Part shown: positions 2,637 to 43,550 of the stretch, piece after piece
How positions within the stretch are numbered: position 1 is the stretch's first letter
Layout of the letters: each line of letters begins with the position of its first letter
Assembly (NCBI GenBank): GCA_963830245.1
Contig: CAWHNC010000090.1
Span: forward strand, 59,187-123,186
Source: Nitrospirota bacterium
GTDB lineage: Bacteria; Nitrospirota; Thermodesulfovibrionia; Thermodesulfovibrionales; Dissulfurispiraceae
Length of the DNA stretch: 64,000 bases
Direction: 5' to 3'
The notes under the pieces: generated by a model
Database searches by the model: none
Told to the model about the DNA's origin: nothing
Seen by the model: the letters and a program-made list of their open reading frames with translations, nothing else
Made by a program: the position numbers and the translations under genes

Positions 2637-2691
2637 TGAATGTTGAATTAGTGAAGAATCCTTAATTTAACATTCAACATTCAGCATTTTT
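2637..2691 (+). terminator. hairpin plus T-run after pgk
   Basis: tgaatgttgaat (2637-2648) pairs with attcaacattca (2672-2683), a 12-bp stem followed by gcattttt. The arms contain gaatgtt/aacattc tandem words. Confidence 0.45.
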
Positions 2692-2710
2692 GAAAACGAG
2701 GGAGGGGTCA

Positions 2711-3925
2711 ATGGCAAGTATAAAAAAGATAGGCGTCATCACAAGCGGTGGTGATTGCGGCGGTCTTAACGCGGTCATTAAAGGGGTGTCACGCGAGGCT
2801 TATGCCCATGGGATCGAATCAGTTGTTATTCCCAACGGTTACGCCGGTCTTTACAACCTCGTGGAACTCGAATCAGTTGTACTGCTTAATGCGGAGAGGA
2901 TCAGCCGCATCGAGGCCTCGCTTGCAGGAAGCGAAGCCGGCCATTCACGGGTCAAGATCAGCAAAATAGCAGACCCGAAAAAGTATGAGCGCATTAAAGA
3001 AGGGCTCAGGAAGTTCGGCATAGACGCCCTGGTCATAAGCGGTGGCGATGATACGGGAAGTGTTGTAGTGGACCTCGGCTCCCAGGGCATACCCTGCGTG
3101 CATGTCCCCAAGACCATGGACCTCGATCTCCAGACTTACAGCGTTGGAGGAGACTCATCAATTAACAGGGTCGCTATTTTTACACGGGAACTGAAAACCA
3201 CGGGCCTCAGCCACAACCGTATCCTCGCGATAGAAGTATTCGGCAGATATGTGGGACATACCGCGCTGCATGGCGGGATCGGCGCTGAAGCCGACTGCAT
3301 ATTGATACCTGAAATCCCCGTGGACTTTGATGTCGTATACAGCGATATGAAAACCACTTATTGCAACAGGGTCATGCGCAGCGATGTGAAGGCAGGGACA
3401 TATATAATCGTTGTTGCCGAGGGCATGAAGAATGCGACTGGTGAAATGCTTTATGACGACGCAGCAGGAGTGGACGCCTTCGGTCATAAAAAACTTGCGG
3501 GCGCGGGGAAATATGTGAGGCAGGAGCTTGAGAAACGCCTGAAGGAGGACCCCGCAATGAAAGAGTTTATGAAAGAGACTGGAATGTATGCGCCCGGCGT
3601 ATACGAAGTACCCGAGGTGCGGGAAGTCACGCCTGGCCATCTTGTGCGCGCAGGAGGGTCTTCAGCCTATGATGTGAATTTCGGGTACAAGGCGGGCGCC
3701 TGCGCAGTGCTTATGCTGATAGAGGGGAAGACAGGCAACACCATTGTCGATGTTGATGGCAACCAAATATCCTATATCCCGACACCCGAGGCAATTAAAC
3801 AGAGAAAAGTTGATACCGCTGAAATTGCCCTTTTTGAGAGCCTGGGCACCTGCTTCGGGCGCAAGCCTGAAAAGTTCAACTACGAACTTGTAGAAAGGAA
3901 AATTCCAATAGCGAGGCATATTTAA
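2711..3925 (+). CDS. phosphofructokinase family protein (PPi-type residue signature)
   Basis: Motifs GVITSGGDCGGLNAVI, ISGGDDTGS, VPKTMDLD and FGRYVGH. ATG 2711 is preceded by gagggagggg. Confidence 0.85.
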   Translation: MASIKKIGVITSGGDCGGLNAVIKGVSREAYAHGIESVVIPNGYAGLYNLVELESVVLLNAERISRIEASLAGSEAGHSRVKISKIADPKKYERIKEGLRKFGIDALVISGGDDTGSVVVDLGSQGIPCVHVPKTMDLDLQTYSVGGDSSINRVAIFTRELKTTGLSHNRILAIEVFGRYVGHTALHGGIGAEADCILIPEIPVDFDVVYSDMKTTYCNRVMRSDVKAGTYIIVVAEGMKNATGEMLYDDAAGVDAFGHKKLAGAGKYVRQELEKRLKEDPAMKEFMKETGMYAPGVYEVPEVREVTPGHLVRAGGSSAYDVNFGYKAGACAVLMLIEGKTGNTIVDVDGNQISYIPTPEAIKQRKVDTAEIALFESLGTCFGRKPEKFNYELVERKIPIARHI

Positions 3926-3939
3926 TATGGCAAGAAAAA

Positions 3940-5178
3940 GTGACGGCACAGTCGGCATCATTGTCGGGGGGGGCCGGCCCGGGGATTAATGGCGTTATCA
4001 GTTCGGCTACTATTGAAGCTGTTAATCAGGGCAGGAAGGTCGTCGGCATAAAAGGGGGATTCAAGCCGCTCTTTGAAGGCAGGACAGACTGCACTCTTCC
4101 GCTCAACATATGTGACGTATCGAGGATACATACGCAGGGCGGCTCTATTTTAAGGACCTCACGGGACTTCCCTGACAGGGTAAAGGAGAGATTTGCGATA
4201 TTGATGTCGACGCTCAAGCAGCTCGACATCAACTATCTTGTTACTGTCGGCGGCGAGGGCACACTTTTTATGGCTAACTGGATTGGCCGGGAATCCAGGG
4301 GGGACATGAGTATCGTGCATGTCCCAAAAACTATTGATAACGATATCCCTTTGCCGGGGGGAGCTTCGACGTTCGGCTTTCAGACGGCGCGGCATCTCGG
4401 AGTGGAGATTGTCCAAAACATAATGGAAGACGCCAAGACCACCGGCCGGTGGTACTTTATCACCACGATGGGCAGGCATGCCGGCCATCTTGCTTTAGGC
4501 ATCGGAAAGGCTGCAGGGACAACAATAACGCTCATTGCAGAGGAATTCACCGAGGACAAGGTCTCCTTCAAGAAGGTTGCCGATGTGCTTGCAGGCTCTA
4601 TAATAAAGAGACTCGCCTACGGCATAGACCACGGGGTTGCTGTACTTGCCGAAGGCATTTCCGAGAAATTCGATTATGACGAACTCAGCGATTATGAGCA
4701 GGTGGAAAAGGATGAAACCGGTAGGACCAGGCTTTCCGAAATCCAGCTTGGCAGGGTGTTAAAGACTTTTGTGATGAACACGCTTGAGTCTCTGGGCATA
4801 CATACTACCATTGTGGACAAGAACATAGGCTATGAACTGCGGGCTGCCGCCCCCATCCCGTTTGACCTTGAATATACGAGAGACCTTGGCTACGGCGCCA
4901 TCCGGTACCTCCTCAGAGGTGGGACTGATGCAATGATTGTGCTCAGTGACGGGCATTTGAGAGCTATTCCTTTTGCCGAGATGGTGGACTATGCCACAGG
5001 CAATATGAAGATCAGGAAAGTGGATATCACTTCTGAAACGTATGAGGTGGCACTGAAGTATATGCGGCGATTAACTCGCGACGATTTTGAAGGGGAGCCG
5101 CTGCAACGCCTTGCCGGCACGGTTAGTCTGAGTCCCCGCGAATTTATCGGCAGATTCGGCTATCTTGTCGGCCTCTGA
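3940..5178 (+). CDS. second phosphofructokinase paralogue; N-terminus interrupted by a G8 tract
   Basis: Motifs GGAGPGINGVI, TVGGEGT, VPKTIDNDI and MGRHAGHLAL. A natural ATG at 3927 (MARKSDGTVGIIVGG...) is in another frame and stops at 3987. The frames meet in the G8 run at 3966-3973. Confidence 0.8.
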   Translation: MTAQSASLSGGAGPGINGVISSATIEAVNQGRKVVGIKGGFKPLFEGRTDCTLPLNICDVSRIHTQGGSILRTSRDFPDRVKERFAILMSTLKQLDINYLVTVGGEGTLFMANWIGRESRGDMSIVHVPKTIDNDIPLPGGASTFGFQTARHLGVEIVQNIMEDAKTTGRWYFITTMGRHAGHLALGIGKAAGTTITLIAEEFTEDKVSFKKVADVLAGSIIKRLAYGIDHGVAVLAEGISEKFDYDELSDYEQVEKDETGRTRLSEIQLGRVLKTFVMNTLESLGIHTTIVDKNIGYELRAAAPIPFDLEYTRDLGYGAIRYLLRGGTDAMIVLSDGHLRAIPFAEMVDYATGNMKIRKVDITSETYEVALKYMRRLTRDDFEGEPLQRLAGTVSLSPREFIGRFGYLVGL

Positions 5179-9320: not shown

Positions 9321-10793
9321 TCAATAGGAATTGACGCCAGTCACAAGTGATGTTGCATCCATGTTTCCAATAGCACTCCAGAAAACAGGCCAGTTTGCAG
9401 CGGTAATCGGGTCACTCTCGTTACTGTTAGTTGGAGCAGAATAATTATTCCCGGAAAAAAAGTACCCTCTGTAAAGTGACTGTTGTGCACTATTCGTTTT
9501 AAGCAATGGATAAAGATTTGTTAAGGAGTTATTTAAAGGACCTTGCATGGCGTACGCTGCCGAAAAAGTGTAATAGCTGTTAAACTGTGCCGGCAAGGTA
9601 GCGAGGTCGTAATTTATGGAAACATAATCTACAGGCTGAAATGTACCGGAAGAAATTTTAAATATCTTGAAAGCCGGGTTATTGCCAAAAAACGGTGCTA
9701 TAGAAGGCGTAATCTCCAGCACGTTATTAGTAGGCGACATGATGCGATATTCATCCATATGAGTATGGGCTCCAAGCGTCAGGCTTATAAGACCCGGATA
9801 TTTCTGAAGCGTGGTCATAAAGCTCGACTGGTAATTCGGCTCCAACATCATGTAGGCTGACGTTGTTGTAACCGGAAGACCGTTGGCGACCGTTGCAGCT
9901 ATGACGTCACCAGGGGGCACATGCATTAAAAGCCACACTTTTTGGCCGGCAGCCTGGGCTGCAGCAAGCTGGGAATCAAGCCATGCAATTTCAGTTGCTA
10001 CCGCAGCGCTGTTGTCAACCGGGACTCCATTCGCGAGCAAAATCGTGTTAATTCCTATCACCACCAGATTTGTTCCAAGCGGCCGGCAAGAATAATATCC
10101 ACCGGCAGTAAAGGTACTATTAAAAGTCTGCCGGTCCGTAATTCCATTCAGGAAATTTGTGTAAAAGTTTTCCGCATTACTGGAAAGGAAAGCGCTGTCC
10201 GGCCCCCAACCCGTATAAGAATCAAGGTTTCCGACAGCAAACAGGACAGGAACATTCGCGAGTGCAGCCCTCACCTGAGTTGTAAAGAATGAAACCGCTT
10301 TATCAGTAAATGCCTCTAAGGCTGCAACTGCTGCAGCACCTGAACTTCCGTAAAGGGTGAAAAACCTTGTCGGAATGTTATGCCCAAGAATATCGCCTGT
10401 ATAGATAACAAGCGGACACGACCCAAGGTTTCGACTTATGTTTGCAAGGGCGAGCATGAGCAAAGGGTAGTTTGTATCGTTTCCCCATGTTGGTGGTGTT
10501 GTTATTTTTGATGTCTGGAAAATACTCGCCCACTGACCGGGATCCGAAGAATTAAGCAACGGGAAAAGAGTTTGATCGTATAGAGGATCAAAATGAACAT
10601 CCGAGAAAACAAGCACCGGGAAGCTACTCCCGGAAGAAGCGCCGCTGCCACATGCACTCAGTCCGGCGAAATACGCACCGGCAGCTGTAGCCGCCGAATA
10701 CTTTATGAAGTCGCGCCTTGTTATCCCTTTTATACCGCAACCGTCGAGAACTGAATTTAAGTCATCGCCTTTACTGTCTTTACTGTTTTTCAC
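9321..10793 (-). CDS. Tat-exported lipoprotein, acid-sphingomyelinase-like metallophosphoesterase
   Basis: Twin-arginine RRDFIKYS and lipobox LSAC. Metallophosphoesterase motifs SDVHFD, GDILGHN, GNLDS, MHVPPG and GAHTHMDEY. GTG start preceded by aggaga. Confidence 0.75.
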   Translation of the reverse strand: MKNSKDSKGDDLNSVLDGCGIKGITRRDFIKYSAATAAGAYFAGLSACGSGASSGSSFPVLVFSDVHFDPLYDQTLFPLLNSSDPGQWASIFQTSKITTPPTWGNDTNYPLLMLALANISRNLGSCPLVIYTGDILGHNIPTRFFTLYGSSGAAAVAALEAFTDKAVSFFTTQVRAALANVPVLFAVGNLDSYTGWGPDSAFLSSNAENFYTNFLNGITDRQTFNSTFTAGGYYSCRPLGTNLVVIGINTILLANGVPVDNSAAVATEIAWLDSQLAAAQAAGQKVWLLMHVPPGDVIAATVANGLPVTTTSAYMMLEPNYQSSFMTTLQKYPGLISLTLGAHTHMDEYRIMSPTNNVLEITPSIAPFFGNNPAFKIFKISSGTFQPVDYVSINYDLATLPAQFNSYYTFSAAYAMQGPLNNSLTNLYPLLKTNSAQQSLYRGYFFSGNNYSAPTNSNESDPITAANWPVFWSAIGNMDATSLVTGVNSY

Positions 10794-11325: not shown

Positions 11326-13241
11326 TCAAGGGATCAAAGCGTTCTGACTTTTGAGTCGGCGCCACAACGTAGTTCGACTAATCCCCAGTTTGGCGGCTGT
11401 TTTGCCATAATGGTAGTTTGATTCCTCCAGCGCCTTCAGCAACAATGACTTGTTCAAGTCAAAATTGAAGGGAGAATCTGCTGCAGACGTAGCTATGGAT
11501 GATCCTTCACGATTATTTTCCCCGGCTAACGGCCGCAACAACATTCCTTCGAGGTCCCCGGACTCGATGACGCCGCTTTTATTGAGGACAGCAAGGCGTT
11601 CCGCAATGTTGCGCAATTCACGCACATTGCCAGGCCAATGATGTTCTTGCAATATTCTCCGGCCTTCCGGGCTGATGTCACTACAAGGCCTGCCCAAAAA
11701 TTGACAATATTTTTTGACAAAGTGAGATATTAGCGGGATGATGTCTTCATGTCGTTCCCGGAGCGGCGGCAGGTCAAGCCTGAGCACATTGATCCGATAA
11801 TAAAGGTCTTCGCGAAAGAGCCCTTCCTGTGTCAGCTTGTAAAGGTTCCGATTTGTAGCCGCAATAATACGGACGTCAATGGGGATAATCTTGTCATCGC
11901 CGAGGCGCATTATTTCCCTCTCCTGCAACACTCGCAATAACCGTCCCTGCAGCTTTAATGGGAATTCCGATATCTCATCTAAAAAGATCGTTCCCGGTGA
12001 GCCAGTTCAAATAAACCCATTTTCCCCCCGCGGACTGCGCCGGTAAATGCCCCGGTTGCATAACCGAAAAGCTCACTTTCCAGGAGATTCTCCGGCAATG
12101 CTGCGCAGTTTACAGCTAAAAAAGGTCCATTTCGGCGGCGGCTGGCATTGTGAATACTCTGGGCGAAGATTTCCTTTCCGGTTCCGGTTTCGCCTATGAT
12201 GAGGATGGTTGAATTCACCTCGCCAAATTCTTTTGCAACTGATATGGTTTGCCTGATGGCGTGACTTTCACCCAAAATATCGGAAAAAGTCAGTTTAGCC
12301 ACATGACCACGCTCATAATCTTTGCGTCGAATCCTTCCCTCCAACTCCTGGATAACACTGACAGGCTGAAACGTTGCGACAGCTCCTACTGCCCGGCCGT
12401 TGACGAAAATCGGGACTCTGTTAACAGCAAGCCTCTGCCCATTGATTGTTTCAATTTCCCCTAATTCGGAGTGTCCCGTTTCCAAAACTTTTCCGAGACC
12501 CAATTGTGGGAAAAAGCTATCAACAGGCAGGCAGATTACCGCATCACTAACGCCGGTCAACTTCACAGCAGCTGAATTTACCAGGTCAATGATGCCTGCA
12601 GCATTGACTGCTATAACGCCTTCAGTCGCATAATCCAGGATTGCATGGAACTGTTCCGCACGCTCCTGCTCCTGACGACGTATAAGTGCCACGCGTTTCG
12701 CACTTTTCAAGGCATGATAGACATCTTCCTGCGCTATTTTTATGAATTCGGCGTACATGCCGTATTGCTCAGCTATTACCTTGGACATTACTCCGCCAAT
12801 GACCACATTGACTCCGTTTTCTTTCACGCGCTGAATGCTCGCTACAACTTCGTTTTCATCCTGGATTGCAACTACTATTAACTCGATCCCAACGATATCC
12901 TCGATTTTTTTTACGCCATAAATCATATCCCGGGAGCCGACAATCGCAATTTTTTCAGGGGCATATTTTTTTTTGCATTCCCAAATAGTTCTCATTATTT
13001 CATAGCCGCTTACCGGAAGCTCTACAACCGGCGTGTCCTTTATGCGCTGTTTTAAAGTGGCTGCCGTGATTCCCCGGGCAACAATGACATCCGTGCTTAT
13101 GTTTTTCCAGTCATCAATTTCGCGCTCAAACTTGGCCAGACAAATTTCGAGTTCCCAACCGTCATCCCCTTGCTCTTTGAATACCTCTTTCACTATGTCG
13201 CCTATTTCCGAATATGGAACAAAAAAAGTTATCTTACCCAC
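11326..13241 (-). pseudogene. sigma-54-dependent transcriptional activator (PrpR_N-PAS-AAA+-HTH), frame broken inside the AAA+ domain
   Basis: ORF 11979-13241 carries the PrpR-type N-domain, a PAS domain, GETGTGKE and ESELFGY...GLFELAH. ORF 11326-11937 carries RVLQEREIMRLG...IIAATN, a GAFTGA-family core and a C-terminal HTH. The missing [18 protein letters not shown] is readable in the third frame across 11940-11995. The break is at the ccc run 11993-11995. Confidence 0.85.
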
Positions 13242-13327
13242 TCTATTCCCTTTATTGTCAGTTTTTCCCCGTTACACTCATTGTTGCCAGTGACAACTTA
13301 TTGTACCACGGCAAGGGTCGGCAAGAT

Positions 13328-13358
13328 ATGAAACAAATGAAACACAATGAACACTATG
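13328..13358. promoter_or_regulatory. candidate upstream activator sites: ATGAA(A)CA direct repeats
   Basis: atgaaaca, aatgaaacac, aatgaacac and tatg start at 13328, 13337, 13347 and 13356, a 9-10-nt phasing, about 80-110 nt upstream of the -24 element. Confidence 0.35.
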
Positions 13359-13437
13359 TTGCGGCTCATTTATGATCCCCTGCGATATCTATTAATAAAT
13401 ACATGATAAATCAGAGATATACATTATAATCAACACT

Positions 13438-13453
13438 TGGCATTTTTTTTGCT
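13438..13453 (+). promoter_or_regulatory. sigma-54 (-24/-12) promoter
   Basis: TGGCAT-ttttt-TTGCT with GG at 13439-40, GC at 13451-52 and exactly 10 nt between. It lies 86 nt upstream of the ATG at 13539 and is divergent from the sigma-54 activator gene. Confidence 0.65.
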
Positions 13454-13538
13454 TTGTTTAATCTGTTTGAATTTTATACTTTTGCCTGAGCGGCAAACAG
13501 AAACCCTGGATCAAGCGAGGGCTACGGGAGAATAGGGA

Positions 13539-14285
13539 ATGAAAATAGACGCGACTAAGTGTCTTGGGTGTGGACGTTGCCTGGTCTACTGTACAATGGG
13601 CGCAATCGGATTTACACGTCGCGAACATGGGCAGGTGTGCGCTTATGTTAATGAAGATGAATGTGTGGACTGCGGCGTATGTTATCGTGCGGGAATATGT
13701 GTTGGCAAGGCAATGTACGAGCCGATGCCCGAATGGCCGCGTTCTGTGCGTGGCACCTTTAGCAACCCGCTTGTGGAACATAAGGAAACAAAAGTTCCGG
13801 GACGGGGGACAGAAGAAATGAAAACCAATGACGTTACGGGTCGGTTTAAATTAGGCGAAGCGGGTGTGGCTGTGGAAATGGGCCGCCCGGGAACCGGTGC
13901 GCGTTTTTTTGATATTGAGAAAGTTGCCATGGCAATTGCGTCATTGGGGGACATAGTCTTTGAGCCTAATAATCCTATAACGGGCTTGATGGCAGATAAA
14001 TCTACAGGCAAAATGAACCCTGAAGTACTAAATGAAAAGGTTTTATCGGCAATTATCGAGATGACGGTCCCACTTCACCGGGTGTTGGACATTTTTGAGG
14101 TTGTTAAAAAAGTCACAAAAAATATCTCTACTGTTTGTTCACTTGACCTGACATGCAGAGTGGACGCTGATGACACTACACCTGCTTTTGATCTTGCCCG
14201 TACAGCAGGTTTTAAACCAACGGCACATGGGAAAACGAATGTGGGACTTGGCAAGCCGTTTTTTGTTGAGGAGATACTGAAATGA
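13539..14285 (+). CDS. 4Fe-4S dicluster domain protein with an unassigned C-terminal domain
   Basis: Contains CLGCGRCLVYC and CVDCGVCYRAGIC ferredoxin motifs. The remaining ~180 aa are not recognisable. Confidence 0.6.
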   Translation: MKIDATKCLGCGRCLVYCTMGAIGFTRREHGQVCAYVNEDECVDCGVCYRAGICVGKAMYEPMPEWPRSVRGTFSNPLVEHKETKVPGRGTEEMKTNDVTGRFKLGEAGVAVEMGRPGTGARFFDIEKVAMAIASLGDIVFEPNNPITGLMADKSTGKMNPEVLNEKVLSAIIEMTVPLHRVLDIFEVVKKVTKNISTVCSLDLTCRVDADDTTPAFDLARTAGFKPTAHGKTNVGLGKPFFVEEILK

Positions 14286-14923
14286 GCCATACACTGCACA
14301 GAAGAGGGACTCCGGAAAGCTTAAAAAAAGATTTTGTGGTTTTTGCGATGACGGCAAAAAAAATCAACGATGCCGGATCGAGTCTAAGATTAAGACGGTT
14401 TCTCGAAATAATCAGCAAGTACGGTCCGGTCAATTTGGGCGATATGAAAACCGGCAACCGTTTTATCACTCCTGCTGAAGTGATTATCGACAACGTGAAA
14501 GATACCTCTATTGTCCACGGAGTGTTTGACACCAGGGAATCATTAATCAGGGCGCTTAAGGAAGTGAAGGAAGCCGACCTGGGAGTTTCGGTGATAATCT
14601 CAGGACTTCTTGATGGGGTTAAGGAGTGTTGTGGTCAAGCCGGGCTGGGCAGGCACACATGTGAAACATCGCTTGGCATATGGGGAAGAACAGAGCGTCT
14701 GCCTGATGAAGATATTCTTAATTTTACTACCATGTGCGGACACGGGCAGGTGCCTTTCAACCTGGTAAAAAAAATGATCGCAGACATTAAAGAGGGGCGG
14801 CGGACTGTGGAAGAGGCTGCAGAAGAGCTCACAAAACCATGCCAATGCGGAGTTTTCAACCCCCATCGGGCTGCTGCAATGCTGGAGGAAATATTATGCC
14901 TCTGGGGAGTGATGGTCTCTTAA
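14282..14923 (+). CDS. hypothetical protein, Cys-containing
   Basis: ATGA overlap with the upstream gene and TAATG overlap with the downstream gene imply translational coupling. Contains MCGHGQVP and CQCGVFNPHRAA; no family recognised. Confidence 0.5.
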   Translation: MSHTLHRRGTPESLKKDFVVFAMTAKKINDAGSSLRLRRFLEIISKYGPVNLGDMKTGNRFITPAEVIIDNVKDTSIVHGVFDTRESLIRALKEVKEADLGVSVIISGLLDGVKECCGQAGLGRHTCETSLGIWGRTERLPDEDILNFTTMCGHGQVPFNLVKKMIADIKEGRRTVEEAAEELTKPCQCGVFNPHRAAAMLEEILCLWGVMVS

Positions 14924-15480
14924 TGAAGCATATATGGGTCGATATTGATAAGTGTTTGGGCTGCAAGACCTGTGAATTGCAATGTGCAATAGAGCGTAAC
15001 TCGGTAAGCAAGACGCTTGCCGGAGCAGCCTTGGAGGATCCGAGGCCGATACCGAGGGTTGGAGTCAGCGGTCCGACGGGCAAGAGCTTTCCAATCCAGT
15101 GCCGCCATTGCCAGGATGCACCTTGTTTAACTGCCTGTCCTTCCGGCGCGATGCAGCGCTATGCAGAAAAGGGAACTGTATTTGTTGCCGAGGACAAATG
15201 CAGGGGTTGCTGGATGTGTGTCATGACTTGTCCTTTTGGGGTTGTGACTCCTTCAGCCCAATACAAAGTGGCGGTGAAATGTGATGCATGCATGCATATG
15301 GAAGAGCCTGCATGCGTCGCCTCTTGCCCAACCGGCGCACTTATGCATTGCGATGAAGAAGCCTTTATGAAGGTTTTGACAGCGAAGCGGGGCCAAATAT
15401 CGGTTTTTGCCAAATCCGTTTCAACAGCAGAACGATCTAATATTGTAAGTTTAGATATATCAAAGGACGGTAAAAGATGA
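14923..15480 (+). CDS. cooF: CooF-type 4Fe-4S ferredoxin
   Basis: Four Cys clusters: CLGCKTCELQC, CRHCQDAPCLTAC, CRGCWMCVMTCP and CDAC...CVASCP. Sits immediately upstream of cooS. Confidence 0.75.
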   Translation: MKHIWVDIDKCLGCKTCELQCAIERNSVSKTLAGAALEDPRPIPRVGVSGPTGKSFPIQCRHCQDAPCLTACPSGAMQRYAEKGTVFVAEDKCRGCWMCVMTCPFGVVTPSAQYKVAVKCDACMHMEEPACVASCPTGALMHCDEEAFMKVLTAKRGQISVFAKSVSTAERSNIVSLDISKDGKR

Positions 15481-16925
15481 AAGAGGTCAAAAAAAAATCA
15501 TGTGATGCAGCAACTAACGCTATGCTTATTAAAGCTATGCGATCAGAGATTGATGTGATCTGGGACCGTACAGAGGCCATGCAGCCCCAATGCGGTTTTG
15601 GACGGTTAGGCATTTGCTGCACCGAGTGCAATGATGGTCCCTGCAGGACAAATCCGTTTGCGTCAGACAATCAACTGACAGTATGCGGACGTACTCAAAG
15701 CGAATCGGTTTCCGGCCACTTTCTTAAGAAGGCTACTGACGGCGCAGCAGCATTTGCAAGTCTCGCAAAAGAGTTCCAGGCTGATATTGACGGGCGCACT
15801 GCACAAACGGTTCTATCGCCTGCGGATTGCATGTTGGCCCCGGCAGATTATACTTCGCGACTGTCAGAGATCGGGCAAACCACAACGAAATTCCTAATGT
15901 CGATCAGGGCGGCTAAGGAACAAGTCTATGCGGGAAAAGACAGGTTTGCGATTACGACGGCAAATATGGGCTCTTTGAAAGACGATGCTGTTAATATTGT
16001 ACTGCTCGGCCATGTCGCTCCTCATATAGTCAGCGCACTCATAAATGAAACGTCTAAAAGTGATGTCCTATTTAACTTTACCGGTATGTGCGGCGGAGAA
16101 ATAAACGGCAACTTGCCGGTGTTGACAAATTATCAATCTCAGGAGATGCCGTTACTGACAGGCGCGGTTGACCTGCTGATTATTGGTTCGCAATGTGTAA
16201 TGCCGGCTACGGTATCGTTGGCCAAGGCATTGAATGTCCCTGTCGCTGCCGCTGCCGGGCTTAACGATCGCAAAAGGGCTGAGGCAGTTATTCAAATGGC
16301 TATCAGCGCTTCCCTTATTCGAAACGGGAAAAAAGTCAATATCCCGGCCTCCATGGAGAAACTATATACAGGGTACACCACGGCAAACAGCCGCGAGCTA
16401 TTAGAAACATTAGCCGGGGCATACTCCAGGGGCATTGTAAAAGGGTTAGTGTATATCGGAGGATGCGGCAATGTTGCGAAGACCCAGGACGAGTCAATTA
16501 TTAATTTGGCAGCGCGGCTGCTTGCATACGGATATGTGATAGTCACTGCCGGTTGCGCAGGAACTGCTTTGGCAAAGGCAGGGATGTGCAGCCCGGAATA
16601 TGTTTTGCGGGCAGGATTGGAAAGCATATCAGAAATCGGCATACCTCCGGTGCTGCATATCGGTTCATGCCATGATGCAGGAGAATTTATCAAAATGGCG
16701 CAAAGTATTCGTTCCCACAAAATACCTGTATTCGCCGCAATGCAGGAACTCAGGCACAACAAGGTATTGGCAACAGCAATAGCTTTTGCTTCAGAAGGCA
16801 TTTCAACTTATATTGATTGGGGTGAAGCAACGTTTTTTCCAAAAACGGAGTTGGCGGGTCATGTTTTGCCGATAAGTGATCTTGAACAACTCATGCAAAA
16901 TTCTGCCAAAGTTGAAGCAGGCTAA
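15477..16925 (+). CDS. cooS: compact CooS-family Ni,Fe-CO dehydrogenase homologue (482 aa)
   Basis: EAMQPQCGFGRLGICCTECNDGPCRTNPF...VCG (D/B-cluster pattern), VNIVLLGH, GSQCVMP, IGGCGNV, VTAGCAG, LHIGSCHD and RHNK. Confidence 0.8.
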   Translation: MKEVKKKSCDAATNAMLIKAMRSEIDVIWDRTEAMQPQCGFGRLGICCTECNDGPCRTNPFASDNQLTVCGRTQSESVSGHFLKKATDGAAAFASLAKEFQADIDGRTAQTVLSPADCMLAPADYTSRLSEIGQTTTKFLMSIRAAKEQVYAGKDRFAITTANMGSLKDDAVNIVLLGHVAPHIVSALINETSKSDVLFNFTGMCGGEINGNLPVLTNYQSQEMPLLTGAVDLLIIGSQCVMPATVSLAKALNVPVAAAAGLNDRKRAEAVIQMAISASLIRNGKKVNIPASMEKLYTGYTTANSRELLETLAGAYSRGIVKGLVYIGGCGNVAKTQDESIINLAARLLAYGYVIVTAGCAGTALAKAGMCSPEYVLRAGLESISEIGIPPVLHIGSCHDAGEFIKMAQSIRSHKIPVFAAMQELRHNKVLATAIAFASEGISTYIDWGEATFFPKTELAGHVLPISDLEQLMQNSAKVEAG

Positions 16926-16941
16926 GGCTGGGGGCGGAAGC

Positions 16942-18156
16942 GTGTATATCATAGTCGGCCAGGGGATTGCGGGGGCAACTGCTGCGGCTGAACTGCGTAA
17001 GCAGGACCGTCAATCTCCGGTAACCGTAATCACCAATGAACATGACTATTTGTATAACCGAATAGATTTACCGGACATTATTGCCGGTAAATACAAGTCA
17101 TCCGAGACATTGCTGAAAAGGGCGGAAGACTTTGACTGCCTCGGGATAAACTGCGTGATGGGTGAGAAGGTGACCGCCGTGCTGCCCGCCCAAAAAACAG
17201 TGGAGGTTTCTTCAGGTCAGCGGTTTCAATATCATAAATTGCTGCTCGCAACCGGCTCACTGCCGGTGATGCCGCCCATCGTAGGCAGCACGACAGCCGG
17301 GGTATACAGCCTGTGGACGATGCGGCAGGCGGAAGAAATTATAGATGCGGCTTCAAAAGCTCGCAGAGTTGTGGTTATAGGGGCCGGCCTGATCGGATTA
17401 AAAACCGCACTTGCACTTAAGAAACGCGGCTTGAAAGTAACTGTTGTTGAGAAGTTGCAGCGCATGTTACCACGCCAACTTGATGATGAGGCATCGGAAA
17501 TACTGAGTGATCGCCTGAGGGATATGGGAATAGAGATTCTGGTGAACGCCGGCGTGGAGGGCATAGCTGCAATCAACGGCTCAGTTAGCAGTGTTCAGTT
17601 AGACAATGGTTCTCTGCCCGCCGATATGGTGATCATGTCAATAGGGGTAACCCCTAATATTAAATTGGCTGTCTCAGCCGGAATAAGAACCGGACGGGGT
17701 ATAATTGCAAACGAATTCCTGCAGACCTCCATGCCGGATATTTATGCCGCGGGGGATGCTGCTGAAACATTCGATAGTGTTACCGGTGCTTCTGCCGTTC
17801 CTGCAACCTGGCCGGTTGCAGTCGAGCAGGGACGAATTGCTGCCTGCAACATGGCGGGCCGCAAAGAAAAATATCACGGGTCATTAGCTATGAATGCGGT
17901 AGAAGTGGGAGGCATCCCTCTTGTGTCTATAGGCGATATAGCAGGCAGGCCGGGAGATTCTGTGCTTGCAGATCGCAGGGGGGATAAATATCGGAAAGTA
18001 GTGATTCGTGACAATGTACTTCGCGGGGTACTTTTCATGGGGGACATTCGACAGGCAGGTGTCATTGGAGCTCTAATTTCGCGCCGTGCCCGGTTGGAGA
18101 ACTATGAAAAGCTTATATCGCCATATTTCAGTTTCGCGGATTTAATAGCAGAGTAA
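16942..18156 (+). CDS. FAD-dependent pyridine nucleotide-disulfide oxidoreductase (FNOR-type CooS partner)
   Basis: IIVGQGIAGATAA and VVVIGAGLIGLKTA Rossmann motifs and a YAAGDAA motif. GTG 16942 follows gggggcggaag. Confidence 0.8.
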   Translation: MYIIVGQGIAGATAAAELRKQDRQSPVTVITNEHDYLYNRIDLPDIIAGKYKSSETLLKRAEDFDCLGINCVMGEKVTAVLPAQKTVEVSSGQRFQYHKLLLATGSLPVMPPIVGSTTAGVYSLWTMRQAEEIIDAASKARRVVVIGAGLIGLKTALALKKRGLKVTVVEKLQRMLPRQLDDEASEILSDRLRDMGIEILVNAGVEGIAAINGSVSSVQLDNGSLPADMVIMSIGVTPNIKLAVSAGIRTGRGIIANEFLQTSMPDIYAAGDAAETFDSVTGASAVPATWPVAVEQGRIAACNMAGRKEKYHGSLAMNAVEVGGIPLVSIGDIAGRPGDSVLADRRGDKYRKVVIRDNVLRGVLFMGDIRQAGVIGALISRRARLENYEKLISPYFSFADLIAE

Positions 18157-18166
18157 CAGGGGAGGA

Positions 18167-19162
18167 ATGACCATGTCTTTTTTAACAAAGGCGGCCTTGC
18201 TCAAGGGACCTTACAATATCGATCTTGTAGAACGAGAGCTGGTCTGCGGCGAAGATGAAGTTATAGTAAAGAACCATTTGATAGGCATTTGCGGATCTGA
18301 CAAAAGTTTTTACCGGGGACAACTCCCGCCTAAAACAGCCGAATTCAGACAAGAGCCTAAATTCCCTTTTTGGTTGGGTCATGAGAGCGGAGGTACGGTT
18401 GTTGAAGTTGGTCCAAAGGTGAGAGACTTCAAAGCCGGTGACAAAGTTATTTGTTTTGGCTGGAACAATAATTTTGCGACATACTTTGTCGCCAAGGATT
18501 TTCAATTGCAGCCTGTTCCTGAGGGTCTGGACATGGATTTTGGCGCCCTGGGAGAACCTATCTCCTGTGCGATGTATTCAGGACTTAATTCGGGCGTTCA
18601 ATTGGGAGATGTTGTCGTAGTTATGGGAGGCGGGTTTGCGGGCCAGATCATTGCGCAATGCGCAAAACACAAAGGCGCTTATAAAGTGATTGTAGCTGAC
18701 ATCCTGGATGGAAAACTGAAATTGGCCCGGCAGTTGGGGGCGGATATAACAGTGAACCTGAAACGCGACAATATTGTGGAAGTTGTTTCGGAACTTACAA
18801 AGGGAAGAGGCGCTGATGTGGTTGTGGAGGCTGCCGGGTCGGCGGACTCGTTTAATACCGCTTCCGAAATTATCAGGCATAACGGCAAGTTTGTTTTTTA
18901 CAGCTGGGTGACTCAACCCATAACTCTGAACATAAGCCGCTGGCATGACGATGGGCTCGAATTCCTCAATACCTGCCTGGTCCATCACACATGGAGGGAA
19001 AGGTATGTCTGGACACCGCTGACACTTCGCCCGGTTATTCAGGGTCAAGTCCAAATCAGACCTTTGATTACTGATGAGTTCAAACTGGAAGATATTAAAT
19101 CCGGCTTTGAATTGGCTGATAAGGATGAAACAGCGATTAAGATCGTTTTTCGGATAGACTAG
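18167..19162 (+). CDS. Zn-dependent alcohol/polyol dehydrogenase (MDR family)
   Basis: GICGSDKSFYRG, GHESGGTVVEVG and VMGGGFAGQI. Confidence 0.8.
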   Translation: MTMSFLTKAALLKGPYNIDLVERELVCGEDEVIVKNHLIGICGSDKSFYRGQLPPKTAEFRQEPKFPFWLGHESGGTVVEVGPKVRDFKAGDKVICFGWNNNFATYFVAKDFQLQPVPEGLDMDFGALGEPISCAMYSGLNSGVQLGDVVVVMGGGFAGQIIAQCAKHKGAYKVIVADILDGKLKLARQLGADITVNLKRDNIVEVVSELTKGRGADVVVEAAGSADSFNTASEIIRHNGKFVFYSWVTQPITLNISRWHDDGLEFLNTCLVHHTWRERYVWTPLTLRPVIQGQVQIRPLITDEFKLEDIKSGFELADKDETAIKIVFRID

Positions 19163-19179: not shown

Positions 19180-19208
19180 TTGACAAGGGACCCTCCTCGT
19201 GCTATTTT
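19180..19208 (+). promoter_or_regulatory. possible promoter TTGACA-17-TATTTT
   Basis: TTGACA at 19180-19185, a 17-nt spacer, TATTTT at 19203-19208, 60 nt upstream of the ATG at 19268. Confidence 0.3.
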
Positions 19209-19267
19209 TCTCTCATACGGGAAAAGTAAATTCTTTTCATCAACGCAGGACTACAGAAGGAGGGGGC

Positions 19268-20182
19268 ATGGAACGAAAGGGCGGAACGGGCTCCGGGGCA
19301 CCCCTCGACTGCATCGTCATCGGGGCAGGCCCGGGAGGCCTGCAGGCCTGCATCCACCTGGGACGCTACAACTTAAAAGGACTGCTCTTCCATCGTCCCG
19401 GTGGGAGGACCCACCATGCAAAGCACATCGAGAACTACCTGGGGCACCACGCCATCTCTGGCCCGGACCTCCTGGAAACGGGCCTCGCCCAGGCGGAGAG
19501 CTTCGGCGTGGCTGTGGAGCGCGCACAGGTGGAGCGTGTCACAGCCCGGGAGGGGCACTTCGAGGTGATAGCCGCGGGGAAGACCTACAGCTCCCGCTTC
19601 GTCATCGCTGCCTCGGGGGCACGGGAGAGCCTAGCCCCTTTCAAGAACCTCGCGCGTTTCTTCGGCACCTCCTACTTCACCTGCATGATCTGCGACGGAT
19701 ATCGCACTACCGGCAGGAAGCTGCTCGTCATCGACCGCACCATCCATGGCGCTCGCCTCAGCGTCGGGATGAAGCAGCTGTTCACCAGCGACGTTACCTT
19801 CCTCTCCCATGGCTTCTCCCTGAACCCGGAGTACGCTGCGCTGCTCGATGAGGAGGGGATCGACCGGGTTGAGGGGAAACCGGAGGAGCTTCTCGGTGAG
19901 GATACCCTCTATGGGGTGAGGCTCGCCGACGGGCGTGTCATACCCTGCGAGGTCATCATGGGTTGGGGGGGGATATCCCTAAACGACGAGTATCTCGAAG
20001 GTCTGCCCCTGGAGCGCGATGCCGAAGGGTTCAAGATCGTAACGAGTGGCGCCGGCGAGTCAAGCGTCCCGGGCCTCTTCGTCCTCGGCGCTCTCCGCCA
20101 GGGCCACTCCCAGGCGATCATCTCCGCCGGCCAGGGGGCTGAGGCGGCGATCGAGATCACAACGAGGATCGTCGCGCTCTAA
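19268..20182 (+). CDS. thioredoxin-reductase-like FAD-dependent oxidoreductase, compositionally foreign
   Basis: DCIVIGAGPGGLQA, a redox CMICDGY (CxxC-DG) and GLFVLGA. SD gaaggaggggg. Hand-counted GC in two 60-nt samples is 67% and 63%, versus 37% and 42% in the flanks. Confidence 0.75.
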   Translation: MERKGGTGSGAPLDCIVIGAGPGGLQACIHLGRYNLKGLLFHRPGGRTHHAKHIENYLGHHAISGPDLLETGLAQAESFGVAVERAQVERVTAREGHFEVIAAGKTYSSRFVIAASGARESLAPFKNLARFFGTSYFTCMICDGYRTTGRKLLVIDRTIHGARLSVGMKQLFTSDVTFLSHGFSLNPEYAALLDEEGIDRVEGKPEELLGEDTLYGVRLADGRVIPCEVIMGWGGISLNDEYLEGLPLERDAEGFKIVTSGAGESSVPGLFVLGALRQGHSQAIISAGQGAEAAIEITTRIVAL

Positions 20183-34405: not shown

Positions 34406-35590
34406 ATGCCAAAGAAATACCCGACACCACTGTTGGATGAGCTTGAAAAAGGTCCATTTCCAAGCTTCGTAACAGAAATCAAAAAGGCGGCTGTAAAAAA
34501 CGATATGGCTGCCGACGAGCTTGGACTGCTCGAAAAGTCGTACAGGGACAGGCGGGGCTACTGGAAGCACGGCGGCATCGTCGGTGTCCGCGGATACGGA
34601 GGCGGCGTTATCGGCAGATACTCATCACTCCCGGAGGAATTCCCGGCTGTCGCTAACTTTCACACCATCAGAATCAATTCCACCTCGGCATTCTTTTACA
34701 CATCGAAGTTCTTAAATGAAATGTGCGATATCTGGGACAAGTACGGAAGCGGCCTCACCAATATGCACGGCTCAACCGGCGATCTGGTTCTTTTAGGTAC
34801 CAACACTGAAAGTCTTGAGCCTATATTTGCTGAATTTTCGTCACGGGGCTGGGATTTGGGCGGTTCCGGGTCAGCAATGCGGACGCCGAGCTGCTGCGTA
34901 GGGCCGGCGCGGTGCGAATGGGCAAATATCGACACCCTTGATATCAATTATGCTGTCACCCAGGAATTCCAGGATGAGATGCACAGGCCTGCATTCCCGT
35001 ATAAATTCAAGTTTAAAACAGCGGGCTGCGCTGTGGATTGTATAGCTTCTATTGCCCGCGCCGACTGCTCCATCATCGGCACATGGAAGGGCTCTATCGC
35101 AGTCGACCAGAAAGAAGTTGCTGCTTATACAAAGGGCGGGATGAACATCCAGGAAGAAATCGTTGATATGTGCCCCAGCAAATGCATGAGCTTTAACGGC
35201 AAAGAATTAAAGATCGACGATGCCAACTGTGTACGCTGCATGCACTGCATAGCAAAGATGACAAAGGCTTTAAGGCCGACCGGTGAAAAAGGCGCCACCA
35301 TTCTTATCGGCAGCAAGGCACCCTTTGTTATCGGCGCCACTCTTTCCCATGTGATTGTTCCGTTCATGAAAATGGAGCCGCCATATACTGAATTGAAAGA
35401 ACTGGTCAGGAAGATGTGGGAATGGTGGGACGAGCACGGAAAGAACAGGGAGAGGATCGGCGAACTGATCATCAGAAGGGGCATGAGGGAGTTCCTTGAG
35501 TTCATCGGGGTTGATCCTATTCCTCAGATGGTGAAGGAGCCCAGAAGGGATCCCTTCTATTTCTGGACCGAAGCAGACTTACAGAAATAA
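34406..35590 (+). CDS. dsrA: dissimilatory sulfite reductase alpha subunit
   Basis: N-terminus PTPLLDELEKGPFPSFVTEIKK, siroheme/Fe-S Cys motifs and a ferredoxin insert CPSKC...CVRCMHC. Followed by dsrB and dsrD. Confidence 0.9.
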   Translation: MPKKYPTPLLDELEKGPFPSFVTEIKKAAVKNDMAADELGLLEKSYRDRRGYWKHGGIVGVRGYGGGVIGRYSSLPEEFPAVANFHTIRINSTSAFFYTSKFLNEMCDIWDKYGSGLTNMHGSTGDLVLLGTNTESLEPIFAEFSSRGWDLGGSGSAMRTPSCCVGPARCEWANIDTLDINYAVTQEFQDEMHRPAFPYKFKFKTAGCAVDCIASIARADCSIIGTWKGSIAVDQKEVAAYTKGGMNIQEEIVDMCPSKCMSFNGKELKIDDANCVRCMHCIAKMTKALRPTGEKGATILIGSKAPFVIGATLSHVIVPFMKMEPPYTELKELVRKMWEWWDEHGKNRERIGELIIRRGMREFLEFIGVDPIPQMVKEPRRDPFYFWTEADLQK

Positions 35591-35622
35591 CAATATATAT
35601 CTATCAATAAAGGAGGAAAATT

Positions 35623-36693
35623 ATGGCGTTACCACAAAGAAGAACAGATATAGGACCACCTCACTATAAGGACTATCTGCCGCCGGTAATCCAGAAAAAT
35701 TACGGGGACTGGAAGTATCACGAGGTCATCAATCCCGGAGTGATGGTCCATGTGTCCAACAAAGGAGAAAAAATCTGGTCGGTAAGGGTCGCTTCTCCAA
35801 GGCTCCTCAGCACTGATACTATAAGAGAGCATGCCGCTCTTGCTGAAAAATATTGCGGCGGGTATCTGCGTTATACAACCCGGCACAACGTCGAATTTCT
35901 TGTTTCTGATGAGAAGAACGTAGAACTGCTGCAGAAGGAACTCAAAAGCAAGAATTTTATGGTCGGCGGGATCGGCCCAAGGATAAGCAATATTGTCCAC
36001 ACACAGGGCTGGATCCATTGTCATTCTGCCGCATGTGATGCATCGGGTCTCGTCAAGGTGCTTATGGACGAGTTCGCTGATTATTTCACTACTAAAGAAA
36101 CCCCTAACAAGGTAAGATTGGCAGTTGCATGCTGCACCAATATGTGCGGCGCTGTTCACTGCTCCGATATAGCGCTGGTCGGTATCCACAGGAAAATTCC
36201 TACTGTTGAGGTCGACAAAATCAAAAACATGTGCGAGGTGCCATCCACAATAGCTGCGTGCCCGACAGGCGCAATCAGCCCTGATCCTGCAAATAAAAGC
36301 GTCAAGATCAAAGAAGAGAAATGCATGTATTGCGGAAACTGCTTCTCTGTCTGTCCGGCGCTCCCTATTGCGGATCCCGTGAATGACGGAATCGCTATTG
36401 TCGTAGGCGGAAAGGTCGGGAACCTGAGGAGCAACCCAATGTTCTCCAAATTAGCTATCCCTTACCTGAAGAACAATCCTCCGAGGTGGCCTGAAGTCAC
36501 TGCGGCTGTTAAAACGATCCTCGAAGCATACATCTCAGGTGCAAAAAAGCACGAGAGGGTGGGCGAATGGGTCGAGAGGATAGGCTGGGAGTCATTCTTC
36601 AAGACCACCAAGTTGCCGTTTACATTCCAGCATATTGACGATTTCACTATTGCAAAGGAAACATTCAGAAACTCATCTTCATTTAAATGGTAG
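35623..36693 (+). CDS. dsrB: dissimilatory sulfite reductase beta subunit
   Basis: [19 protein letters not shown]-terminus, plus [10 protein letters not shown] and CPTGA...[12 protein letters not shown]. Confidence 0.9.
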
Positions 36694-36707
36694 AATAAAA
36701 TACTGTC

Positions 36708-36737
36708 ATCATGGGTACGCAATCGCGTACCCATGAT
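36708..36737 (+). other. perfect 13-bp intercistronic hairpin between dsrB and dsrD
   Basis: atcatgggtacgc, loop aatc, gcgtacccatgat. No T-run follows. Confidence 0.55.
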
Positions 36738-36782
36738 AAGAACAGGTAAGTAAAAACTGCTAACCAAGGAAAGGTGCTATTC

Positions 36783-37001
36783 ATGGAAATAGAAGAGATA
36801 GAACAGAAGATATATGCGCTGGTCGAGAAGTCCGTCGGGAAAAAGAAGCTGAAATCGAGCGATATACAAAAGACGATTTCTGCAGAGGCAGGCGTAACGA
36901 GGGACGAGGTAAAGGCCGCACTGAGAGTTCTTGTTGATAGTGGAAAACTTATTTATACGTATTTCGGCGGAAGCTTTGTAGAGATACCGCCTCAGCAGTA
37001 A
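36783..37001 (+). CDS. dsrD: DsrD
   Basis: 72-aa winged-helix-like protein (KKLKSSDIQK...LVDSGKLIYTYFGGSFVEIP) directly after dsrB. Confidence 0.8.
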   Translation: MEIEEIEQKIYALVEKSVGKKKLKSSDIQKTISAEAGVTRDEVKAALRVLVDSGKLIYTYFGGSFVEIPPQQ

Positions 37002-37020
37002 GCAATAGCTTATAAATACA

Positions 37021-37072
37021 AAAAGGCAGGGCTGTCTATCTGAATCAGTAGATAGACAGCCCTGCCTTTTTT
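37021..37072. terminator. strong bidirectional intrinsic terminator after dsrD
   Basis: 17-bp perfect stem (37025-37041 with 37050-37066) flanked by aaaa and tttttt. Confidence 0.8.
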
Positions 37073-37131
37073 GCTTAGTGCTTCAGTTCATAAATTTATT
37101 GATAATGAGGGATAGGTTATAATAAATAACG

Positions 37132-38607: not shown

Positions 38608-38724
38608 ATGTGAGAAATTAAGGAATATTCTTTTCTTTGCATTGTAAATTTTTTTCTCTGTGTTCTCGCTTAGAAAGCGCCTACTTTTGGCTGTGGTTTA
38701 TTTTGACGTGTTTTGAGGTGAAAG

Positions 38725-39786: not shown

Positions 39787-39922
39787 TTTTATAATATTAT
39801 TTTATTTGACCTGAGAGCCTGTTCTATATTATCTTGATAAGTCCAAATGTCGTTTTTTTATCTAATTAATATTATAATATAAGATAACTTTAAAATTGCG
39901 GGAAAAAAAGGAGGAAAGCATT

Positions 39923-40258: not shown

Positions 40259-40298
40259 ACCGGCAATGCACGCGCAACAATATAATCTAAAATAAAGA

Positions 40299-40340
40299 AA
40301 CAGGTAGGAGGCAGGGGTGGTTGTCTCTTACCTGTTTTTT
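40299..40340 (+). terminator. intrinsic terminator after dsrC
   Basis: aacaggtagga (40299-40309) pairs with tcttacctgtt (40326-40336) with one G-U, followed by tttt. Confidence 0.6.
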
Positions 40341-40360
40341 GCATTCCGGGTGGGAGGGAA

Positions 40361-40927: not shown

Positions 40928-40931
40928 CAAA

Positions 40932-41924: not shown

Positions 41925-41926
41925 AC

Positions 41927-43549: not shown

Positions 43550-43550
43550 A

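Follow-up and report, generated by a model that had tools for sequence, protein, structure and literature searches.

Six genes at 13539–19162 of a 64-kb window from a Nitrospirota bacterium (64,000 nucleotides of contig CAWHNC010000090.1, the whole stretch of DNA analyzed here) form a plus-strand operon that encodes two proteins, designated X and Y, together with a CooF-type ferredoxin, a shortened homologue of the carbon monoxide dehydrogenase (CODH) CooS termed mini-CooS, an FAD/NAD(P)-dependent oxidoreductase (FNOR) and an MDR Zn-dependent dehydrogenase (ADH). A first-pass annotation of this sequence had described the operon as built around CooS, a description that our comparison did not bear out. 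As judged from sequence comparison, the X-Y pair is the invariant and most conserved core of the operon and CooS is not, because X and Y are more conserved than CooS, lie next to each other in nearly all loci, often occur without CooS and are linked to CooS-like partners that have lost the C-cluster. We favor, with little more than even confidence, a reading in which the operon would encode an inducible Fe-S oxidoreductase complex that is linked to NAD(P), X-Y being its catalytic core and mini-CooS, CooF and FNOR an electron-transfer, possibly C1-redox, arm. The operon and its upstream region comprise:

11326–13241, minus strand: sigma-54 enhancer-binding protein (EBP), PrpR_N - PAS - AAA+ (GAFTGA) - HTH_8 by Pfam, in two open reading frames (ORFs)
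13329–13354, plus strand: putative upstream activating sequence (UAS), three TGAAACA-like direct repeats (from 13329, 13338 and 13348; 9–10-nt phasing)
13438–13453, plus strand: sigma-54 -24/-12 element TGGCATTTTTTTTGCT (TGGCAT-N5-TTGCT), GG/GC register, 12-nt spacing
13539–14285, plus strand: X, 248 residues, N-terminal 2x[4Fe-4S] ferredoxin domain and a ~180-residue domain outside known families
14282–14923, plus strand: Y, 213 residues, ATGA overlap with X
14923–15480, plus strand: CooF, 185 residues, TAATG overlap with Y
15477–16925, plus strand: mini-CooS, 482 residues, ATGA overlap with CooF
16942–18156, plus strand: FNOR, 404 residues, GTG start with ribosome-binding site, 16-nt gap after CooS
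18167–19162, plus strand: ADH, 10-nt gap after FNOR

The six genes are tightly packed, with ATGA or TAATG overlaps or gaps of 10–16 nt, and each has a Shine-Dalgarno-like sequence. No plus-strand terminator-like site was found inside or just downstream of the block. The first-pass annotation had proposed a coupled six-gene unit, with which this layout agrees, and its listing of the domains in the six proteins was reproduced by Pfam and NCBIfam.

Distribution and gene neighborhoods of X-Y

A scan of one genome per species returned at least 592 Y-encoding loci, which range over Nitrospirota, Desulfobacterota, Negativicutes, Clostridia, Acidobacteriota, Chloroflexota, NC10, Gemmatimonadota and Bathyarchaeota. 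Among the 79 best loci, that is those closest to the query, X is encoded directly 5' of Y in 74 of the 76 that have room for X. The two proteins also occur as a natural fusion (P0497), and in a second fusion (P0369) Y is joined to a CooF-like polyferredoxin. Between the window and Thermosinus carboxydivorans Nor1, identity is 79% for Y and 72% for X, compared with 68% for CooF, 53% for FNOR and 50% for CooS. Co-occurrence with short CooS genes holds from the side of mini-CooS, where all eight further loci inspected contain X-Y (including those of Sporomusa termitida, Anaerospora hongkongensis and Acetonema longum), but not from the side of X-Y, where only 23 of the 79 loci have a CooS-like gene. 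A tungsten-type aldehyde:ferredoxin oxidoreductase (AOR) is encoded in 13 of the 79 and directly 3' of Y in four, 42 of the 79 are without CooS, CooF, FNOR and AOR within 7 kb, and several operons consist of a transporter and X-Y alone. X-Y appears to be an obligate partner pair of mini-CooS, in a partnership that outlasts complete loss of the C-cluster.

The T. carboxydivorans locus has the order EBP (637 residues) - X - Y - CooF - mini-CooS - FNOR and shares with the window the PrpR-type EBP, the -24/-12 element and the TGAAACA repeats; it differs in being without ADH and in having an intact, co-directional EBP gene. The same gene set together with ADH is found in metagenome-assembled genomes of Nitrospirota (L011–L013) and in other metagenomic contigs.

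Carboxylate transporters of the TTT (TctABC) or TRAP type lie beside X-Y in 20 of the 79 loci. Also encoded there are transporters of the CitMHS and MFS families, two-component systems resembling CitA/CitB and regulators of the GntR-FCD type; some loci add C-N hydrolases together with AllG- and FdrA-like genes. A dehydrogenase for hydroxy groups recurs beside the pair, its family varying among MDR ADH, Ldh_2, 3-HIBDH-like, GlcD/GlcF-like and SDR.

Several single loci have unusual arrangements. A groundwater deltaproteobacterium (L067, JACRCA010000012.1) carries three tandem X-Y pairs followed by TctC and TctA genes, which suggests paralogous diversification. In S. termitida, A. hongkongensis and A. 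longum (L090, L091 and L092) a Lipoprotein_9 (MetQ/NlpA-type) gene lies directly 5' of CooF - mini-CooS - FNOR - X - Y, and in Anaerospora (L091) a MetNI-like ABC transporter and a DUF169 gene are found nearby. Two unrelated genomes (L004/L005 and L006) have genes for sulfur trafficking close to the module, with TusA, NifU, cysteine desulfurase and Rrf2 in one and YeeE-like Sulf_transp, TusA and Se_S_carrier in the other, which may be coincidence.

Sequence and predicted folds of X and Y

Fer4 is found only in residues 1–60 of X, where eight invariant cysteines form two ferredoxin motifs (8, 11, 14, 18 and 42, 45, 48, 54), and Pfam and NCBIfam are silent on the rest of the protein. This second domain contains no conserved cysteine and is marked by the invariant residues R68, R71, H81, R89, E92, E93, K95, R102, E113 and R116. 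We detected 3902 homologues of X, and matches of its profile to the PDB were confined to the ferredoxin domain. For Y we detected 1511 homologues, and 857 clusters at 50% identity among 1.8 billion proteins, nearly all of them 205–230 residues long and matching from residue 1. Invariant in Y are the N-terminus MSHTLHRRG, five histidines (3, 6, 79, 125 and 154) and three cysteines (152, 187 and 189); a fourth cysteine, Cys117, is almost so. Y has no match in Pfam or NCBIfam, and a profile search of the PDB gave no sequence match at E<10.

The AlphaFold2 models are of good confidence, with pLDDT values of 84 for X and 86 for Y. Foldseek returned weak ACT/PII-like matches for the C-terminal domain of X and a weak ferredoxin-like/ACT/PII-type similarity for the N-terminal domain of Y, with no match of Y to the PDB at E<0.05 (best E=0.05, TM 0.33). 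Family assignment of Y and of the C-terminal domain of X by Pfam, NCBIfam, PDB profiles and Foldseek yielded only the ferredoxin domain and generic alpha/beta sandwiches. The two parts that the first-pass annotation could not recognize, the 180-residue domain of X and the whole of Y, therefore remain without a Pfam, NCBIfam or PDB family. A comparison of X and Y with hhalign, as a test of paralogy, detected no relationship between them. The three invariant cysteines of Y could ligate a [4Fe-4S] cluster that leaves one iron free, as in aconitase and IspH, or belong to a mixed Cys/His metal site.

The CODH homologue and its degenerate relatives

The 482-residue protein scores 138 bits with the Prismane model of Pfam and 159 bits (E 1e-46) with the CODH model TIGR01702, compared with 22.7 bits (cut-off 367) and 17.3 bits (cut-off 361) with the hybrid-cluster protein (HCP) models NF003658 and TIGR01703. 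All 36 matches in a PDB search are CODHs, the best at 165 bits. An HCP identity was rejected on these scores (23 versus 159 bits) and on the all-CODH PDB matches, and the placement of the protein with Ni-CODHs, on which the first-pass description depended, is confirmed. The TIGR01702 equivalog cut-off of 478 bits is not reached.

The compact CooS, for which the first-pass annotation gave no name, is of a type already on record: a minimal CooS beside cooF was reported from T. carboxydivorans Nor1 as the 'mini-CooS' in 2012 (Techtmann et al., PMC3328121) and was assigned to clade G by Inoue et al. 2022 (PMC8776680), while a large 2019 CODH survey left out sequences shorter than 550 residues (PMC6344411). 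The window protein shares 51% identity with the T. carboxydivorans 'Prismane' protein P0037, also of 482 residues, over 100% of P0037, with the same Cys/His ligands and in the same neighborhood, and is thereby close to WP_007288589-type proteins. From length, similarity, ligand set and neighborhood, we infer that it is a mini-CooS of clade G. The published description of the T. carboxydivorans protein names only the adjacent cooF (PMC3328121), and in the mini-CooS and CODH literature searched we found no description of X-Y partners, sigma-54 control or degenerate paralogues of mini-CooS.

Mini-CooS is ~150 residues shorter than canonical CODH, and its N-terminal helical domain is reduced by a deletion of ~80 residues between residues 100 and 155. 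Alignment to CODH-II assigns C39 and C47 to the D-cluster and C48, C51, C56 and C70 to the B-cluster, while the C-cluster ligands H179, C205, C240, C330, C360 and C398 correspond to CODH-II His261, Cys295, Cys333, Cys446, Cys476 and Cys526. The CC294/295 pair of CODH-II is represented by a single cysteine, and the equivalent of Lys563 is kept as K429. The acid-base position His93 is occupied by Phe93 in the window and by Leu or Phe in all intact members, and that helix contains no histidine. The ligands and the lysine are conserved in 115–120 of 120 family members and the D- and B-cluster cysteines in 117–120 of 120. Also conserved within the family are Cys371 and His399, the latter adjoining the residue aligned with CODH-II Cys526. 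Purifying selection on the ligands argues that the C-cluster is still made in the window's clade.

A different picture emerges from the CooS-like proteins linked to X-Y more generally (n=35), of which 20 have the full ligand set and 15 retain only the four B-cluster cysteines. In these 15 every C-cluster ligand, Lys563 and the D-cluster cysteines are replaced. They are found in Moorella humiferrea, Desulfitibacter, Desulfosporosinus, Peptococcaceae, Oscillospiraceae and some other lineages. Their homology extends over the full length (BLASTP E=7e-32), and the sequence contexts of the ligands are retained around C-to-A/N/G replacements at the motif level, as in GGCGNV to GGAGNI and AGCAG to YGNAA. 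We sought an alternative conserved cysteine set in these proteins and found none, only the B-cluster cysteines being invariant. X, Y, CooF and FNOR are retained in the loci that encode them. Because the module persists where all C-cluster ligands are lost, these alignments indicate that its conserved function cannot depend on CO/CO2 chemistry at the C-cluster.

Operons that combine a CODH subunit, CooF and an FAD/NAD(P) oxidoreductase are known from clades C, D, E and F, where coupling of CO to NAD(P)H or a part in redox balancing is the assumed role (Inoue et al. 2019, PMC6344411). The window operon resembles these CooS-CooF-FNOR modules in this gene combination but differs from them in its shorter CODH without His93, in the constant presence of X-Y, in having CODH relatives that can lose the whole C-cluster and in the lack of a CooC nearby. 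A further point of comparison is the clade B CODH of Ruminococcus flavefaciens, whose CO oxidation activity is very low, which is linked to transporter genes and which has been suggested to act on another substrate (Bohm et al. 2026, PMC13592312). There, too, a CODH scaffold has apparently been repurposed, although the protein belongs to another clade, is full length (79 kDa) and is partnered by ABC-transporter binding proteins rather than by X-Y, CooF and FNOR.

CooF, FNOR and ADH

CooF has the features of its type, with 16 cysteines in four [4Fe-4S] motifs, a Fer4_11 match of 63.6 bits and a length of ~180 residues. Its NCBIfam matches are HydN and the N-terminal parts of AegA and PadI (PadI 69 bits, below cut-off). 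FNOR consists of Pyr_redox_2 (205 bits) and Rubredoxin_C domains, and its top NCBIfam match is PadH (264 bits, also below cut-off). PadH and PadI belong to NADH-dependent phenylglyoxylate dehydrogenase (NF045765, NF045766), in which an FAD enzyme and a polyferredoxin carry low-potential electrons from a catalytic core to NAD+. The window proteins share this arrangement but score below both family cut-offs, and the core here is not a 2-oxoacid:ferredoxin oxidoreductase.

ADH contains ADH_N and ADH_zinc_N domains with the catalytic Cys, His and Glu and without the structural-Zn lobe, and its motifs GICGSD, GHE and GGGFAG are those of MDR Zn alcohol/polyol dehydrogenases. It is of the polyol/threonine-dehydrogenase type and misses all equivalog cut-offs. 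The top matches are only generic polyol or threonine dehydrogenases below their cut-offs and do not point to a substrate. Its identity to X-Y-linked ADHs of other phyla and genomes is 57–89% (Nitrospirota 89%, Firmicutes 70–74%), an unusually high conservation.

Promoter, upstream repeats and a frameshifted activator

The -24/-12 element TGGCATTTTTTTTGCT is the sole match to TGGCAY-N5-TTGCW on either strand of the window, for which 0.30 matches are expected by chance. It lies 86 nt from the first ATG, that of gene X, in the orientation of the operon and next to the EBP gene, and transcription is predicted to start near 13464. In the window and in L004–L008, L011, L012, L028 and L040 the element is found 50–150 nt 5' of the first operon gene, and in L013 and L075 it follows the EBP gene and precedes intervening genes. 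An equivalent element is thus carried by at least 10 loci, including those of Thermosinus, Moorella, Nitrospirota and Gracilibacter. The same pattern has 18 matches in 1.33 Mb of loci, the majority at the promoter positions. Some 90–110 nt 5' of the -24 element are the TGAAACA repeats, and a triple repeat occupies the matching relative place in Thermosinus (L006) and Nitrospirota (L011, L013) and is partially present in L028; it is the probable binding site of the activator.

The EBP is encoded on the opposite strand, and all of the expected domains are present but divided between two ORFs. The N-terminal ORF (11979–13241, 420 residues) contains PrpR_N, PAS, Walker A and GAFTGA, and the C-terminal ORF (11326–11937, 203 residues) contains the remaining AAA+ domain, the lid and HTH_8. 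One nucleotide is missing between 11995 and 11996, and this breaks the frame between the GAFTGA loop and Walker B, directly before the latter. Addition of one base restores an EBP of 638 residues with 63% identity to the EBP of the same locus in Thermosinus (residues 1–631 of each), and an intact 638-residue gene is present in L093 (GCA_052916205.1; 95% nucleotide identity), where the codons at the break read CAT CTG GGA compared with CAC C-G GGA in the window. A homopolymer sequencing error is unlikely, as comparison with L093 shows the loss of a lone T and a second assembly, L002, has the identical deletion, although the two assemblies may come from related read sets.

With its PrpR_N sensor, PAS, AAA+ with GAFTGA and Fis-type HTH, and a gene divergent from a -24/-12 promoter, the EBP resembles the PrpR-family sigma-54 activators, from which it differs in not being beside prp genes and in being frameshifted in this strain. 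The first-pass annotation had thus rightly identified a clean -24/-12 element at this position and a divergent activator with these domains, but the activator is not a single ORF. Sigma-54 promoters need their activator. With its EBP frameshifted, this strain may leave the operon unexpressed, provided that the deletion did not arise in assembly. Sigma-54 control is supported for the operon type, in which promoter and UAS are kept among orthologues; inducibility in this strain is doubtful under the same proviso.

A proposed NAD(P)-linked Fe-S oxidoreductase

The operon would represent a sigma-54/EBP-controlled, horizontally spread unit for a multi-subunit Fe-S oxidoreductase in which X-Y is most likely the catalytic core. 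X would contribute a 2x[4Fe-4S] domain for electron entry and a second domain dense in charged residues, and Y its His-rich invariant N-terminus and three invariant cysteines. Through CooF the pair could be wired to mini-CooS, with its full C-cluster ligand set, and to an FAD enzyme in electron exchange with NAD(P)(H). Electrons would then pass, in either direction, between a substrate at X-Y (possibly also CO/CO2 at the C-cluster), the ferredoxin domain of X, the clusters of CooF and mini-CooS, FNOR and NAD(P)+, and the MDR dehydrogenase would carry out a neighboring alcohol/carbonyl step. CO alone is presumably not the physiological substrate; the probable one is a small organic acid with a hydroxy or oxo group, or a related carbonyl compound, which would be sensed by the PrpR_N-PAS domain of the activator. 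The transporters, regulators and dehydrogenases near X-Y, together with the likeness to PadH/PadI, point to such a hydroxy- or oxo-carboxylate or related carbonyl and to a low-potential redox step. An inducible catabolic or redox-balancing role, as first suggested, fits the regulators and transporters of related loci, whereas in this strain the EBP frameshift makes inducibility questionable.

Several points weigh against this proposal. The window's clade shows strict conservation of the C-cluster ligands (117–118 of 120), and CO/CO2 chemistry may still be central there. Folds of the ferredoxin-like/ACT/PII-like kind, seen in the C-terminal domain of X and the N-terminal domain of Y, are frequent among regulatory proteins that bind ligands. 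What suggests formation of a complex is gene order and two fusions only. The neighbors of X-Y are heterogeneous and no single substrate emerges from them, the 79 loci are not a random sample of the Y family, and no transporter adjoins the operon in this window. In the literature searched we found no biochemical or expression data for mini-CooS or its neighbors.

We considered three other explanations. Mini-CooS could be a working Ni-CODH that oxidizes CO or reduces CO2 and is connected by CooF and FNOR to NAD(P)(H), with X, Y and ADH in peripheral roles such as an extra electron outlet or a reductase consuming NAD(P)H. This would agree with its sorting with Ni-CODHs, with the conservation of all D-, B- and C-cluster ligands and Lys563 in the window's clade, with the recognized CooS-CooF-FNOR context (PMC6344411, PMC8776680) and with the carboxydotrophic growth of T. 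carboxydivorans (PMC3328121). We nevertheless regard it as unlikely, given that His93 is replaced by Leu or Phe in every member, that the TIGR01702 score lies far under its cut-off, that cooC was not found in the 64-kb window and that the regulator is a PrpR_N-PAS EBP rather than a CO sensor such as CooA or RcoM. X-Y is, moreover, better conserved and far wider spread than CooS, and the set of X-Y, CooF and FNOR persists with CooS-like proteins unable to bind a C-cluster.

CooS-V of C. hydrogenoformans has a hybrid-type cluster, and a hybrid-cluster-like site of this kind, or as in HCP, might allow mini-CooS with CooF and FNOR to reduce reactive nitrogen or oxygen species at the expense of NAD(P)H, with X-Y as auxiliary proteins. 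Such a stress or detoxification function appears improbable to us. The family carries the JGI label hydroxylamine reductase, but its HCP match is weak, at 23 bits compared with 159 bits for CODH. Superoxide dismutase, thioredoxin-like and peroxiredoxin-like genes occur near the module in Acidobacteriota, and a thioredoxin reductase (TrxR)-like gene lies 3' of the operon here; the latter, however, has its own promoter-like site and a different GC content and is not conserved beside the module. A non-canonical clade B CODH is on record (PMC13592312), yet the PrpR-type EBP, the CitA-like kinases, GntR-FCD regulators and carboxylate-type transporters all indicate carbon catabolism. Slightly less probable still is a non-catalytic X-Y that would serve CooS, AOR and other low-potential oxidoreductases, either as a dedicated carrier of electrons paired with a chaperone or maturation factor or as two regulatory proteins (ACT/PII-like) that bind small molecules. 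The ferredoxin-like/PII/ACT-type folds in both proteins, the plain ferredoxin domain of X and the variable partners (CooS-like, AOR or none) are compatible with it. Against it stand the 42 of 79 loci without such a partner and the operons of transporter and X-Y alone, the three tandem pairs in one locus, which are typical of substrate-diversified enzymes, and the extreme conservation of polar residues and of the exact N-terminus.

Taking X-Y as the catalytic core, we tentatively put forward a more specific scenario, to which we give distinctly less credence than to the complex itself. X-Y could be an unrecognized metalloenzyme family of hundreds of anaerobic species, in which the ferredoxin and charged domains of X would act with a Cys/His site of Y formed partly by its N-terminus in a low-potential hydroxy- or oxo-acid conversion. 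Some lineages would have recruited the mini-CODH as an active redox partner for C1 (CO/CO2) chemistry, whereas others would retain its fold merely as a cluster-poor subunit for electron transfer or scaffolding. One possible variant is C-C cleavage, in which a C1 or aldehyde fragment would be oxidized on the spot by mini-CooS or AOR, with the electrons going back to X-Y or on to NAD(P)+. Were X-Y a new enzyme, a widespread reaction would be added to anaerobic carbon metabolism, and the module would provide a second case of CODH-scaffold repurposing. The function of mini-CooS and clade G, and of many CooS-CooF-FNOR modules, has been an issue since 2012, and the focus now moves to X-Y. Cultured carriers are T. 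carboxydivorans, S. termitida, A. longum, M. humiferrea, Desulfitibacter alkalitolerans, Desulfosporosinus lacus and Halanaerobium, and the transporter binding proteins and sensor domains linked to X-Y are possible handles on the ligand.

Genomic surroundings

ACS, hydrogenase and CooC were not found in the 64-kb window, either by Pfam on all large ORFs or, for the motif GKGGxGK[ST], in any frame, which extends to the whole window the absence of acs, Coo hydrogenase and cooC noted in the first-pass annotation and supports the context that it described, neither Wood-Ljungdahl nor hydrogenogenic. The only CbiA-domain protein (37132–38607) was considered as a CooC and rejected; it has a GATase_3 domain, lies in a dsr cluster and is DsrN-like. 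This dissimilatory sulfite reductase cluster spans 34406–45926 and includes a DsrMK(J)OP-like set:

34406–35590 and 35623–36693: dsrA-like and dsrB-like NIR_SIR proteins
37132–38607: DsrN-like CbiA/GATase_3 protein
40932–41924: DsrM-like protein
41927–43549: DsrK-like protein
43916–44764: DsrO-like protein
44757–45926: DsrP-like NrfD protein

Because dsrAB, the DsrN-like gene and the DsrMK(J)OP-like set are present, the gene content identifies the host as a diderm sulfite or sulfate reducer.

The operon is flanked by housekeeping genes (glycolysis, LptFG, ALAD). The TrxR-like Pyr_redox_2 gene (~19268–20182, plus strand) was rejected as a seventh operon gene: it follows ADH after a 105-nt gap, has its own sigma-70-like site (TTGACA-17-TATTTT), lies in a region (19180–20182) with a GC content of 0.62 compared with ~0.48 around it and is not conserved at this position elsewhere. 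It may be a recent acquisition. On the other side, between a PilZ gene and the activator, a 490-residue protein with a twin-arginine-type signal RRDFIKYSAATAAGAYFAGL and no Pfam match is encoded at 9321–10793 (minus strand); it is absent here in L093, in which no gene separates the PilZ gene from the EBP gene. Two adjoining phosphofructokinase paralogues (411 and 412 residues) are encoded at 2690–5178 (plus strand), 3' of class II aldolase-like and PGK genes. A fluoride riboswitch (RF01734, 55 bits) at 52978–53041 (minus strand) lies 5' of a tandem DUF190/PII-like protein (51795–52502), and a 158-residue ORF without a Pfam match (51338–51814) is also located downstream of this riboswitch.

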